Assembly (NCBI RefSeq): GCF_964213995.1
Contig: NC_135817.1
Coordinates: 53,134,001-53,198,000 of the forward strand
Direction of reading: 5' to 3'
From: Mustelus asterias
Taxonomy: Eukaryota
DNA: 64,000 nucleotides
Notes under the pieces: model-generated
Databases searched by the model: none
The model's input: only the letters and a program-made list of their open reading frames with translations
What the model was told of the DNA's origin: nothing
Program-made: the position numbers and the translations under genes
Shown: positions 14,221-59,265 of the stretch, in pieces
Layout: each line of letters opens with the position of its first letter
Numbering within the stretch: the first letter of the stretch is position 1

Positions 14221-14564
14221 CACCCCAAGACCGGAAAATCCCGCCCAAGGTCAACCCACCTTTGTATGGTCTGTCCCCCGCCCACTACGATTCCTGTGGC
14301 GGGCAGGACAGGAAAATTCCACCCGATGACTCTATGACCATGACTCCCTCCACCACCGATGCACAGTGGTCGTAGTGTGCACTATCTACAAGATGCACTG
14401 GAGCAACACATCAAGTCTCTATCCACAGCACCTTCCAAGCTCGTGACAACCACTACTCAGAAAGAGAGGGACAGCAGACACATAGAACATAGAACATAGA
14501 AAGCCACAGCACAAACAGGCCCTTCGGCCCACAAGTTGCGCCGATCACATCCCCGCCTCTAGTC

Positions 14565-17486
14565 CTATCTATAGCCCTCAATCCCATTAAATCCCATGTA
14601 CTCATCCAGAAGTCTCTTAAAAGACCCCAACGAGTTTGCCTCCACCACCACCGACGTCAGCCGATTCCACTCACCCACCACCCTCTGAGTGAAAAACTTA
14701 CCCCTGACATCTCCTCTGTACCTACCCCCCAGCACCTTAAACCTGTGTCCTCTCGTAGCAACCATTTCAGCCCTTGGAAATAGCCTCTGAGAGTCTGCCC
14801 TATCCAGACCTCTCAACATCTTGTAAACCTCTATCAGGTCACCTCTCATCCTGCGTCTCTCCAGGAAGAAGAGACCAAGCTCCCTCAACCTATCCTCATA
14901 AGGCATGCCCCCCAATCCAGGCAACATCCTTGTAAATCTCCTCTGCACCCTTTCAATGGCTTCAACATCTTTCCTGTAATGAGGTGACCAGAACTGTGCG
15001 CAGTACTCCAAGTGGGGTCTAACCAGGGTCCTATAAAGCTGCAGCATTATCTCCCGACTCCTAAACTCAATCCCTCGATTAATGAAGGCTAGTACGCCGT
15101 ACGCCTTCTTGACCGCATCCTCCACCTGCGAGGCAGATTTAAGAGTCCTATGGACCCGGACCCCAAGGTCCTTCTGATCCTCTACACTGCTAAGAATGGT
15201 ACCCTTCATATTATACTGCTGCTTCATCCCATTGGATCTGCCAAAATGGATCACCACACACTTATCCGGGTTGAAGTCCATCTGCCACTTCTCCGCCCAG
15301 TCTTGCATTCTATCTATGTCTCGCTGCAACTTCTGACATCCCTCCAAACTATCCACAACACCACCTACCTTGGTGTCGTCAGCAAACTTACCAACCCATC
15401 CCTCCACTTCCTCATCCAGGTCATTTATGAAAATGACAAACAGCAAGGGTCCCAGAACAGATCCCTGGGGCACTCCACTGGTCACTGACCTCCATGCAGA
15501 GAAAGACCCCTCCACAGCCACTCTCTGCCTTCTGCAGGCAAGCCAGTTCTGGATCCACAAGGCAACAGCCCCTTGGATCCCATGCCCTCTCACTTTCTCA
15601 AGAAGTCTTGCATGGGGGACCTTATCGAACGCCTTGCTGAAGTCCATATAGACCACATCCACCGCTCTTCCTTCGTCAATGTGTTTGGTCACATTTTCAA
15701 AGAACTCAACCAGGCTCGTAAGGCACGACCTGCCCTTGACAAAACCGTGCTAACTACTTTTGATCATACTAAACTTCTCTAGATGATCATAAATCCTGTC
15801 TCTCAGGATCCTCTCCATCAACTTACCAACCACTGAGGTTAGACTCACCGGTCGGTAATTTCCCGGGCTGTCCCTGTTCCCTTTCTTGAATATAGGGACC
15901 ACATCTGCAATCCTCCAATCCTCCGGAACCTCTCCCGTCTTCATCGACGATGCAAAGATCATCGCCAAAGGCTCCGCAATCTCCTCCCTCGCCTCCCACA
16001 GTAACCTGGGGTACATCCCATCCGGTCCCGGCGACTTACCAACCTTGATGCCATTCAATAGTTCCAACACATCCTCTTTCTTTATGTCCACATGCTCGAT
16101 CCTTTCTGTCCACCGCAAACCAGCAGTACAACCACCCAGATCCCTTTCCACCGTGAATACCGAGGTAAAGTATTCATTAAGCAGCTCCGCCATTTCTAAC
16201 GGTTCCGCACAAACTTTTCCCCCTTCACCTTTTAAGGGTCCTATGCCTTCACATCTCATCCTTTTACTCTTGACATATTTGTAGAAAGCCTTGGGATTCT
16301 CCTTAATCTTACCCGCCAAGGCCTTCTCATGACCCCTTCTCGCTCTCCTAATTTCCTTCTTAAGCTCCTTCCTACATCCCGTATACTCCTCTAAATCCTT
16401 AACACCTCCTAGCTCTCTGAACCTTCTGTACGCCTCTCTTTTCTTATTCACCAGGTTCATCACAACCTTCGTGCACCACGGTTCCCGTACCCTACCAACA
16501 CCCCCCTGTCTCATCGGAACGTTGTCATGCAGAGCTCCAGACAAACATTCCTTGAAAATCCTCCACTTTCCTTCGGTACTTTTCCCCAAGAATGCCTCCT
16601 TCCAATTTACCCGTCTAATTTCCTCCCTGATGACACTGTATTTCCCTTTACTCCAGAGAAACACTTTCCTAGCCTGCCTGATCCTATCTCTTTCCAATGC
16701 TATCGTGAAGGAGATAGAATTATGATCGCTATCCCCAAGATGCTCACCCACCGAGAGATCCTCCACCTGTCCAGGTTCATTAGCCAGCACCAGATCAAGT
16801 ACAGCCTCTCCTCTAGTAGGCTTATCCATATACTGTGTCAGGAAACTCTCCTGGACACACCTAACAAACTCCTCTCCATCCAAACCCCTAGCCCTAGGGA
16901 TATTCCAATCTATGTTTGGGAAATTAAAATCTCCCATCACGACAACTCTGTTATTCCTACATCTCTCCAGGATCTGTTTCCCCATCTGCTCCTCAACATC
17001 TCTGTTACTATTGGGCGGCCTATAGAAAACACCCAGCAACGTTACCGACCCCTTCCTGTTCCTAACCTCCACCCACAGAGACTCCGTAGTCAATCCCTCC
17101 ACGGCGTCCACCTTCTCTACAGCCGTGACACTATCCCTGATCAACAGTGCCACTCCCCCCCCCTCTCTTGCCTCCCTCCCTGTCCTTCCTGAAACATCTA
17201 AAACCCGGCACCTGAAGCACCCAGTCCTGTCCCTGAGACATCCAAGTCTCCGTAATGGCCACCACATCACAATTCGAAGCAGCAATCCACGCTCTAAGCT
17301 CATCCACTTTATTCACTACACTCCTGGCATTAAAATAGACACATCTCAGACCTTCAGCCTGAGCACTTCCCTTCTCCATCACTCGTCTAACCTCCCTCTT
17401 ACCCTGTTTACATTCCTTATCTATTTGCGAGCTAACCTCCTCGCTCTCAGTCCCCTCATTTCGATTCCCTCCCCCCAATCTTTCTA
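14565..17486 (-). pseudogene. CR1 ORF2 (APE endonuclease + reverse transcriptase) with two lesions
   Basis: YFNARS, ITETW, GDFN, SDH (APE); GVPQGSVLGP, KFADD (RT). +1 frameshift in the C9 run 17155-17163 and TAG at 15752-15750 where CAG of SQHGF is expected. Confidence 0.92.
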
Positions 17487-18401
17487 GTTTAAAGTCTCTC
17501 CAGTAGCCTTAGCCAACCTTCCCGCCAGGATATTGGTCCCCCTGGGATTCAAGTGCCACCCGTCTTTTTTAAACAGGTCACACCTGCCCCTAAAGAGGTC
17601 CCAATGATCCAAGTACCCAAATCCTTGTCCCTTGCTCCAGTCCCTCAGCCACGCATTCATTCTCCACCGATTCCTGTTCTCACTCTCCCGCGGCACAGGC
17701 AGCAATCCCGAGATTACTACCTTTGCATTCCTCTTTCTCAGCTGTCTACCTAACTCCCTATATTCTCTTTTCATGACCCCTTCCCTCTTCCTACCTATGT
17801 CAGCAGTACCTATATGCATCACGACCTTCGGCTCCTCTCCCTCCCCCTTCAGGATTTCTGGGACTCGACCAGAGACATCCCGGACCCCTGCACCAGGGAG
17901 GCAAACCACCATCCGAGAGTCCCGTCTGTGTCCGCAAAAACGCCTATCTGACCCCCTCACCGTAGAGTCCCCAATTAGCACTACCCTCCTTTCCTTACCC
18001 TTTTGCACTACTGGGCCAGGCTCAGCTCCAGAGACACTGCCACCGCTGCTTCCCCCAGGTGGGCTGTCCACCCCAGTAGTACTCAGACAGGAGTACTTAT
18101 TATTAAGGGGCACATCCACCGGGGTGCTCACCATCAACCGAGCTTTCTCCTTCCTCACTGTTACCCAGTTACCCTCCTCCCGTGGTCCCGGTGTGACCAC
18201 CTGCCGATAGCTCCTGTCAATGACCTCCTCACTATCCCTAACCCGGCGAAGGTCCTCGAGCTGCAATTCCAGTTCCCTAACATGGTCCCTTAGGAACCGC
18301 AGCTCAACACACCCAGCACAGATATGGTCGTCCGGGAGGCTAGGAGCCTCCAGGACCTCCCACATCCTACATTGGGAACAACATACTGGCCTCACACTCA
18401 T
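17484..18401 (-). CDS. CR1 ORF1 protein (Cys-rich finger/coiled coil + SGNH/GDSL esterase-like domain)
   Basis: Uninterrupted ORF: CCSQC..CAGC, leucine-heptad segment, LIGDS, HIGTAD, DGWH; ends ..ETLN*. Confidence 0.9.
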   Translation of the reverse strand: MSVRPVCCSQCRMWEVLEAPSLPDDHICAGCVELRFLRDHVRELELQLEDLRRVRDSEEVIDRSYRQVVTPGPREEGNWVTVRKEKARLMVSTPVDVPLNNKYSCLSTTGVDSPPGGSSGGSVSGAEPGPVVQKGKERRVVLIGDSTVRGSDRRFCGHRRDSRMVVCLPGAGVRDVSGRVPEILKGEGEEPKVVMHIGTADIGRKREGVMKREYRELGRQLRKRNAKVVISGLLPVPRESENRNRWRMNAWLRDWSKGQGFGYLDHWDLFRGRCDLFKKDGWHLNPRGTNILAGRLAKATGETLN

Positions 18402-18589
18402 AATTGCCCCTTTAAACACACAGGGAAAAAAAAAAGTGAATGAAAATTTTAAACTTACCTTTCCTCCTCCTGTTTTCTCCAAAGCCCTGCTCTCACTGGG
18501 TCTTTTTTTTTAGGTTAGAGGAGGAGGGAGGGTGGGATACTCTACAAGTGTAGAGTATCGGGATTCCTCTCTGTTCCAATTTATTGGGA

Positions 18590-18942
18590 AAAAAAAATCT
18601 CTCTCTCCCAGACCTCCCTGCGCGACCACTTCCGGGTTTAGATATTTTTTAAGAAAAAACCCGCGAAAAAGTAAGTTAAAAAATAACAGCGCTTACCCGC
18701 AGCACTCCTCTCGCGAATCTCTCCCTCTCTGCTGCACTTCCAAGAAGCAATGAGGCCGATTCACTGAGGTGAGTAACTTTTTTTAAAAAAAATCTCTCTC
18801 TCCCAGACCTCCCTGCGCGACCACTTCCGGGTTTAGATATTTTTAAAGAAAAAACCCGTGAAAAAGTAAGTTAAAAAATAACAGCGCTTACCCGCAGCAC
18901 TCTCGCGAATCTCTCCCTCTCTGCTGCACTTCCAAGAAGCAA
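18590..18942 (-). promoter_or_regulatory. Tandem ~160-190-bp monomers in CR1 5' UTR (putative internal promoter)
   Basis: 18590-18751 and 18786-18942 are near-identical, CpG-rich, and each has CCGGAAGT (ETS/GABP consensus) on the - strand. Confidence 0.65.
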
Positions 18943-21796: not shown

Positions 21797-22290
21797 GGGT
21801 AAAATTTTATCCTTCTCCACCAGCATGTGGTCTGCCTGCCTACCTGGCTGGCCTTGATCTGAGGCCCTTAAGTGGCAGCTTTAGCTGCGCTGGCTGGTGT
21901 CGGGCAAGGAGGGAGGGGTTTTACCTCCTTTTGGAGTCCCTTGTACCCATCGAAGGCAATCGCTTTCACACTTTCTCCTCCCTGCCAACCCAGGTTGTCA
22001 AGCACAGCCTCCCATTCCACTTATTCCTCTATCTGGGCCTCACCAATATGCCAAATATATCTTCAGCCAGGCCTTCTGTTAGCTCCTCTTTTTCAGGGAC
22101 TGGCTGTAGTCCCACCCGTGGCCACCACTCGTACCCAACATTGCTGGGACTACAGAGGGACTATTCCCTAAGGTGACACTTCTCCTCTCAGATGGAGACA
22201 GAAACCTTGACCTTAGCCAATTAGTGCCCCACTGAATGTTTAAATGGCTGCAGTATTGACACTTTAGCTGGCAGGGCAGGACACCCTACC
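21797..22290. mobile_element. Decayed non-autonomous DNA-transposon-like repeat
   Basis: GGGTAAAATTTT start; shares short motifs (CTGGGACTACAG, AATT.GTGCCC) with 50940-51290 and 63820-64000. Confidence 0.4.
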
Positions 22291-34500: not shown

Positions 34501-34994
34501 TGGAGCTACAATTCAGGTTCCCATGCCCCTGCTGAATTAGTTTAAACCTTCCCGAAGAGCATTGGCAAATTTCTCCCCCAGGATATTGGTACCCCTCTGG
34601 TTCAGGTGTAGACCATCCCGTTTGTAGAGGTCCCACCTACCCCAGAATGAGCCTCAATTATCCAGGTACCTGAATCCCTCCCTCCTGCACCATCCCTGTA
34701 GCCACGTGTTCAACTGCTCTCTCTCTCTATTCCTCTCCTCGCTAGCACATGGCACGGGTAACAAACCAGAGATAACAACTCTGTTTGTTCTAGCTCTAAG
34801 CTTCCACCCTAACTCCCTGAATTTCTGCCTTATATCCCCATCCCTTTTCCTAGCTATGTCTTTGGTGCCTATGTGGACCACGACTTGGGGCAGGTCCCCC
34901 TCCCCCTTGAGGATCCCAAAAACACGATCTGCGACATCACGGAGCCAGGCACCTGGGAGGCAACACACCAGCCGCGAGTCTCTCTCGTTCCCCT
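31581..34994 (-). mobile_element. 5'-truncated CR1 LINE (second family; 3' half of ORF1 + disrupted ORF2)
   Basis: SGNH-like ORF1 remnant (34654-34968), APE/RT fragments (YFNARS, SDHN, KFADD), (CTATGTT)n tail, 8-bp TSD ATAGATAA at 31573-31580 and 34995-35002. Confidence 0.93.
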
Positions 34995-59060: not shown

Positions 59061-59265
59061 TTGCGTGTTCGTATATAGTCTAGTGTGAACGTGGAACTGG
59101 GCAAAGATAGAGCAACAAGACCATTTGAGTTTCTGGGAGGGCTTTTAAACTAATTTAAATAAAACAATCCGTACAAAACTACCTGTAATAGGAAAGTCAT
59201 GATGTGGAGGTTGGAGCAACTAAAATGAAAATGCCTTCAGTTGCCCACTGTCAAGCAGACACTGA

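Follow-up and report, generated by a model that had tools for sequence, protein, structure and literature searches.

How does a CR1 long interspersed nuclear element (LINE) translate its second open reading frame (ORF) when that frame lies one base out of phase with the first and, in many families, has no start codon ahead of its first domain? The question is raised by a CR1 LINE that lies, nearly complete, on the minus strand (approximately 18942-14481) of a 64-kb stretch of Mustelus asterias DNA (NC_135817.1, positions 53,134,001 to 53,198,000; hereafter the window, numbered from its first letter). An earlier reading of the bare letters (the sequence-only reading) had proposed that ORF1 and ORF2 are joined by a -1 ribosomal frameshift at U UUA AAC, and the survey described here supports such an ORF1-ORF2 fusion, the shift itself being what we infer from the sequences. 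We consider it highly probable that a programmed -1 frameshift at this heptamer yields the fusion; the junction is real, conserved and probably a programmed -1 frameshift site.

The ORF1/ORF2 junction in the window

ORF1 of the window element ends with the codons GAG ACT TTA AAC TAG, so that the slippery heptamer U UUA AAC (17487-17493, minus strand, as are all features of the element) is read as X XXY YYZ in ORF1 phase and the stop codon TAG (17484-17486) lies immediately 3' of it; other families use TAA or TGA. The -1 frame is closed by a TAA five codons 5' of the heptamer (17509-17511) and is open from 17508 onward, through a linker between the ORF1 stop and the endonuclease (17338-17483) that includes an in-frame ATG 38 codons past the heptamer (17377-17379), to the endonuclease motif YFNARS, whose Tyr begins at 17337. 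The positions that the sequence-only reading had assigned to the heptamer, the stop, the closing UAA and the AUG were all confirmed on the minus strand, as were the phase of the heptamer and the openness of the -1 frame into the endonuclease. Past the heptamer, at +11 to +20 (17467-17476), stands a G-rich motif of five purines (mostly G), two free bases and GGG, which we regard as a candidate frameshift stimulator.

Chance would give 0.51 occurrences of the heptamer followed by TA in the window; there are four, a number that none of 100 shuffles reached. One of the other three occurrences (34538-34546) belongs to a second, divergent CR1 copy (34535-34546, minus strand), in which the same heptamer with a TAA stop marks the ORF1/ORF2 junction in the same layout. 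A further heptamer with a stop, at 59144-59152 on the plus strand, has a CR1-like upstream context and neither the G motif nor ORF2 downstream; it may be a remnant or a chance occurrence.

Conservation of the heptamer, the phase and the open frame

Junctions were sampled blind to the heptamer, by endonuclease- and esterase-motif patterns in the element's own genome and by the endonuclease pattern in metagenome contigs (at least 30 loci). This gave 72 rows with both anchors, from which 18 with an ORF1 tail that was broken or of other length and one duplicate (the window copy) were removed, leaving 53. TTTAAAC stands directly 5' of the ORF1 stop in 46 of the 53, ORF2 is in the -1 phase in 46, and the frame is open from heptamer to endonuclease in 41, with no Met ahead of the endonuclease motif in 28 of these open junctions. 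The stop codon itself varies, with TAA, TAG and TGA all found. Of the seven junctions that lack the exact heptamer, three are own-genome copies with a single-base variant and four are divergent elements from metagenomes.

Silent positions within the heptamer are also conserved. The codon counts cover 15 lineages of vertebrate type: the own genome supplies 11, and the other four come from contigs that we presume to be amniote-type on the resemblance of their motifs. The penultimate ORF1 codon, for Leu, is TTA in all 15 (18/173 in the ORF1 background), the last, for Asn, is AAC in all 15 (28/61 in the background), and the codon 5' of TTA AAC ends in T in all 15 although it encodes Thr, Ser, Asp, Gly or Ala. 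Genome-wide, the heptamer followed by TRR and the G motif occurs at 22,090 sites and a control pattern at 7, whereas sites whose first heptamer base is A, C or G rather than T number only 364. The 100 listed among these 364 belong to many families and are scattered, as expected of random mutations, and no amplifying family with synonymous heptamer changes was found among them. Linkers past +21 are mostly unalignable between lineages (18-85% identity). A tree of the endonucleases of the loci studied here (20 of the 22 representatives described below, the sequences of the other two being of insufficient length) groups the amniote-type elements in one supported clade (99/98) and the divergent metagenome relatives in another (98/99), and is weak elsewhere.

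Phase and openness were followed in 22 representatives chosen for intact linkers. The distance from the heptamer to the Tyr of the endonuclease motif ranges from 111 to 366 nucleotides (nt) and is a multiple of three in 22/22, while the other two linker frames contain 2-20 stops. Twelve of the 22 have no Met ahead of the endonuclease motif; in the other ten the first Met falls anywhere from codon 3 to codon 83. Since the Pfam endonuclease match begins at the YFN motif, restart at the first AUG would cut into the endonuclease domain in those 12, and the Asn of this motif is essential in L1. By shuffling, the chance of so long an open stretch ahead of the first AUG is 0.001-0.44 per lineage, a range inflated by the selection of intact copies. 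Thus the survey found the -1 phase fixed among CR1 families, where variable phase would have spoken against the sequence-only reading, together with a heptamer kept at silent positions, a frame open to the endonuclease and an AUG that is absent in many families. The caution of the same reading that reinitiation might occur at the AUG at 17379 holds for the window family; this AUG is not conserved across families.

Heptamer swaps in distant relatives

More distant relatives suggest that the slippery property is kept even where the heptamer differs. Of six divergent elements from metagenomes, U UUA AAC is retained in three and U UUU UUA takes its place in two; the sixth offers several A-rich candidates. 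The zero-frame stop lies 2 or 10 codons farther downstream in two of the three with U UUA AAC, and U UUU UUA sits one codon ahead of the stop in both elements that use it, each of which was confirmed to have an esterase ORF1.

A profile search of protein representatives clustered at 50% identity gave, among its best 150 proteins, 126 with the esterase His motif and a full tail. Slippery-compatible ends are found in 68 of these distant ORF1 proteins (LN in 51, one with an incompatible preceding residue; GN in 13; KN in 4; or some other core pair), and a further 13 have a compatible site one codon earlier; elsewhere in the same proteins compatible sites make up 293 of 34,343 positions (0.85%). 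Gln precedes nine of the 13 GN ends, which permits G GGA AAC. Other distant relatives end in FLG or FFR, or continue past SKN. The most shift-prone eukaryotic sites listed in the available part of a review include U_UUA_AAC, G_GGA_AAC and A_AAA_AAC (PMC5009743). No relatives were found in viral contigs, and a prokaryote collection gave two contigs only, one of them a degenerate CR1-like piece.

A G-rich motif and the search for a stimulator

In the segment 3' of the heptamer, G is invariant at +11, +12, +14, +18 and +19 in 16/16 vertebrate-type lineages and present at +13, +15 and +20 in 15/16. Both Gly positions that the motif encodes use GGG in 14/15 lineages each, against 114/346 in the background, which suggests constraint at the level of the RNA. 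Its spacing is also fixed: against the 22,090 sites with the motif at +11, only 25 have it 3 nt farther and 356 have it 3 nt nearer, and 95 of the 100 listed among the latter are a long G run of one poly-G family.

How might such a motif act? RNA folding and G-quadruplex prediction, which the sequence-only reading had named as ways to examine the downstream region, did not bear out a structured stimulator in the vertebrate-type lineages. The weak GAUU/AAUC stem that it described is present in this copy and not in the family, the A at 17479 being private (G in 27/28 readable family loci). The local fold at the junction has a z-score of -1.5 in the window copy and of -2.0 to +1.2 across the vertebrate-type lineages; two of the six divergent elements have stems of 6 and 8 base pairs at +9 and +10. 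An Rfam search returned a chance match only (E 0.88). We set aside a G-quadruplex as a general stimulator, as one is predicted in just 7/16 vertebrate-type lineages.

Long-range partners for the motif fared no better. For instance, a plant-virus-type long-distance frameshift element was sought by pairing to the element's 3' end and was not found: in none of 14 elements did the 3' tail pair best, there was no cognate preference, and in the window copy 256 of 587 windows pair better than the 3' tail with the segment 3' of the heptamer. Alternatively, the motif might pair with the 5' untranslated region (UTR), where a C-rich stretch is its best upstream partner in the window family (-22.8 kcal/mol). 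Such pairing cannot be general because 5' UTRs differ between families, and many families with the G motif have no C-rich stretch.

Most likely the G motif is bound by a protein or by the ribosome and does not act by forming a stem. The closest precedent is the arterivirus PRRSV, in which the nsp2 frameshift is stimulated by nsp1-beta and PCBP on CCCANCUCC, 11 nt 3' of the shift site, according to part of the same review (PMC5009743). The likeness lies in a short single-stranded motif at a fixed +11 distance in place of a stem, and the CR1 motif falls within the fixed distance of 11-14 nt that marks protein-stimulated frameshifts of the arterivirus type. The PRRSV motif differs in being C-rich, viral and provided with known binders, whereas that of CR1 is G-rich and belongs to a retrotransposon, its protein partner being hypothetical.

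Proposed mechanism

We suggest that most ribosomes would stop at the ORF1 stop and release ORF1p, while a minority would slip back one base at U UUA AAC and continue into ORF2, the Leu- and Asn-tRNAs presumably slipping from UUA AAC to UUU AAA. The product would be an ORF1-linker-endonuclease-reverse-transcriptase protein of approximately 1,280 amino acids. In vitro, about 0.6-0.85% shifting is reported for this heptamer by itself in work on human T-lymphotropic virus 1 (HTLV-1; PMC7075266), a rate that could already supply a low-abundance enzyme; the stop next to the heptamer and the G motif beginning at +11 probably raise the rate above this level. No protease domain was found in the element proteins, so the fusion would stay uncut. 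Its ORF1 part would presumably bring the enzyme into the ORF1p particle, with free ORF1p on its own RNA. In families with a linker AUG, such as the window family, some restart there may also occur.

Opposing evidence and alternative explanations

Several observations weigh against the frameshift. The CR1 junction fails one feature of a classical site because it lacks a structured stimulator: the 16 vertebrate-type lineages have no conserved 3' stem or pseudoknot stem. The window family has an in-frame AUG ahead of its endonuclease, and where the AUG is absent its absence alone would not argue against restart, since the review cited above regards initiation of mammalian L1 ORF2 as independent of its AUG (PMC5009743). 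Between the two closest families the linker codons differ at 17 non-synonymous and 2 synonymous positions, giving no sign of amino-acid constraint; such a linker would fit a flexible tether and an untranslated spacer equally. The heptamer counts overstate independence because the lineages are related, the codons of the 126 distant proteins were deduced from protein ends and not from DNA, and matches with an LN end were favoured because the search profile had that end too. Finally, a search for a natural in-frame ORF1-ORF2 fusion, itself a weak one, found none, only two host gene models with partial matches. Sequence contigs from four of 15 listed runs (their RNA status guessed for three) bridge the junction, with two listed joints elsewhere; they are uninformative on expression and speak for neither side.

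Four other explanations were considered. Termination followed by reinitiation, with restart at a nearby AUG or near-cognate codon and the G motif tethering the small subunit like motif 1 of the calicivirus termination upstream ribosome-binding site (TURBS), has the advantage of being known for L1 and SART1 (PMC5972666, PMC3894237). A near-cognate or AUG codon lies within four codons of the stop in 13/16 vertebrate-type lineages, but the chance of a near-cognate codon there is already 0.61 per lineage, and both codon and position vary. UGGGA is present at +17 to +21 in 6/16 lineages (only the side downstream of the stop was scanned), yet TURBS motif 1 lies upstream of the stop and the CR1 G motif downstream. 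Although the window family offers the AUG at 17379, restart needs neither an X XXY YYZ heptamer nor swaps among slippery heptamers, and leaves unexplained a heptamer that stays put while the stop shifts 2-10 codons away. We regard restart, the main rival to the frameshift, as unlikely. It is very improbable that the pattern reflects only protein constraint, on a C-terminal Leu-Asn of ORF1p and a Gly-x-Gly of ORF2p, and shared descent with no RNA signal. The LN end of 51/126 distant ORF1 proteins and the common ancestry of the lineages are what such constraint predicts, but the silent sites are fixed as well (TTA in 15/15 against a 10% background, GGG in 14/15 at each Gly against 33%), the residue ahead of LN avoids Q, E, K, M and W (1/51 against 18% expected, P approximately 0.0005, uncorrected for relatedness), and other distant relatives end in FLG or FFR or run past SKN.

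A separate message for ORF2, produced by splicing from a donor-like site in the 5' UTR or by an internal promoter in which TTTAAA serves as a TATA-like box beside a G box, can point to a donor-like site and U-rich tract just 5' of the ORF1 AUG in many families and to CAG/G at +9 to +12 in several. That CAG is absent in the window family and the amniote-type families, however; a promoter requires neither ORF1 codon phase nor a frame open from the heptamer, and a separate message would still leave the AUG-less families without a start codon, so that we find this explanation scarcely credible. Stop-codon readthrough or transcriptional slippage might also join the frames, and the length of the G run does differ between copies; but the linker, read in the zero frame, contains 2-13 stops, and slippage at the G run cannot bypass the ORF1 stop because the run lies 3' of it. 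We give this last possibility next to no weight. A programmed -1 frameshift is the reading that we prefer to all of these.

Relation to known systems

The same heptamer in the same phase, between a structural gene 5' and a polymerase 3', is used at the HTLV-1 pro-pol junction (PMC7075266) and by infectious bronchitis virus (IBV; PMC5009743), as far as the consulted parts of these papers describe them. At the retroviral and coronaviral sites a stem-loop or pseudoknot follows 5-9 nt downstream, and vertebrate-type CR1 shows none. A figure legend in a review states that ORF2 of the Dictyostelium elements TRE5-A and TRE3-A depends on a -1 frameshift, and gives neither a slippery site nor a measurement (PMC5911963). 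These are likewise non-long-terminal-repeat (non-LTR) elements of the APE type, of a different lineage and host from CR1. Because the need is stated for them, the idea of frameshifting has a precedent within the non-LTR class.

L1 and SART1 likewise have a bicistronic LINE message with low ORF2 output (PMC5972666, PMC3894237, in the parts available), although the means differ: a 63-nt spacer in L1 and a UAAUG stop-start in SART1 give a free ORF2p, whereas the CR1 junction carries a slippery heptamer and frequently lacks an AUG. In the portion consulted, the frameshifting review of 2016 treats LINE ORF2 as a case of unusual initiation and does not mention CR1 (PMC5009743). A CR1 survey of 2026 contains, in its main text, no mention of a frameshift, slippery sequence, overlap or reinitiation (PMC13343379). 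The literature searched holds no proposal of frameshifting for CR1; Repbase and Dfam notes, subscription journals and the original CR1 papers lay outside it, and an earlier proposal is possible.

The CR1 copy in the window and its relatives

Judged by its layout and domains, the window element is an ordinary esterase-type CR1, a member of the canonical vertebrate CR1 LINEs, with which it has in common an esterase ORF1, an APE and reverse transcriptase ORF2 and a tandem-repeat tail (as described in the part of PMC13343379 that was seen). Its ORF1 (17484-18401, ATG at 18401) is intact and encodes 305 amino acids, with a Cys-rich N-terminus and a GDSL/SGNH esterase domain (PF13472, E 9e-13). ORF2 (14565-17349) encodes the APE endonuclease and reverse transcriptase and matches PF03372, PF14529 and PF00078 as well as structures of the L1 endonuclease; a structure-sequence search with a short fragment of the broken ORF2 copy gave a chance match only. 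Compared with the family copy L002, two lesions break ORF2 of this copy, a single additional G at 17163 and a stop at 15752-15750. The 3' UTR (14481-14564) consists of a short stem and a tandem 7-nt tail and has no poly(A). A 3' stem with a tandem short-repeat tail in place of poly(A) is a trait of the CR1 family.

The family is young: its best 40 matches are approximately 100% identical across 501 nt, the exact 22-nt junction has 1,093 matching sites, and in most retrieved copies the frame beyond the heptamer remains open past 581 codons. The G run in the endonuclease (17171-17163) seems to be a recurrent point of breakage (L001, L006, L026, L028): the -1 frame closes at 120 codons in 4/28 family loci. 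A derivative family (L053, L078, L079, L134, L136, L146) keeps ORF1, the heptamer and the open linker and departs from the endonuclease just past its first motif; it is probably a non-autonomous, ORF1-only CR1.

The 5' UTR of the window element (18402-18942; alignment to L002 begins at 18941) opens with two near-identical tandem units of approximately 193 nt (18942-18590), and its C-rich stretch lies at 18540-18512. 5' UTRs seem to be modular (L002, L041, L051, L033, L195), with closely related ORF1s carrying different UTR types and distant ORF1s sharing one. A splice-donor-like site, a U-rich tract and then AG, within about 60 nt 5' of the ORF1 AUG, recur in many CR1 families (18460-18411 in the window; also in the 5' UTRs of L033, L051, L128, L173 and others), independently of UTR type, and the arrangement is still present in genomic copies. 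Pieces of the window ORF1 also occur in two cartilaginous-fish gene models, for an Ig-domain protein and a DMBT1-like protein (P0032, P0033), which may represent exonisation or an annotation artefact. A CR1 ORF1 protein labelled Pseudomonas aeruginosa (P0018) and a CR1-like stretch in a bacterial metagenome-assembled genome (L111) look like eukaryotic contamination of prokaryote records.

Implications

The LINE cases in which ORF2 translation has been studied, L1 and SART1, use restart, and according to the 2026 survey most vertebrates have CR1 as their dominant group of retrotransposons (PMC13343379). If CR1 ORF2 is indeed reached by frameshifting, its annotations have a misplaced start, the enzyme is active as a fusion, and a signal of 27 nt sets the ratio of ORF1 to ORF2 product. 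More tentatively, and with considerable doubt, we speculate that throughout the animals the reverse transcriptase of CR1 LINEs is produced by -1 frameshifting within a Gag-Pol-like fusion that stays uncut, and that the vertebrate branch replaced the stem with a G-tract at +11 bound by a protein, either a host G-run binder or ORF1p. The G motif at its fixed distance would then be a type of natural frameshift stimulator that the searched papers do not describe, present in more than 22,000 copies in the element's own genome. If true, this would represent a protein-switched frameshift in a retrotransposon of the host genome, mirroring the C-rich motif of the arteriviruses.

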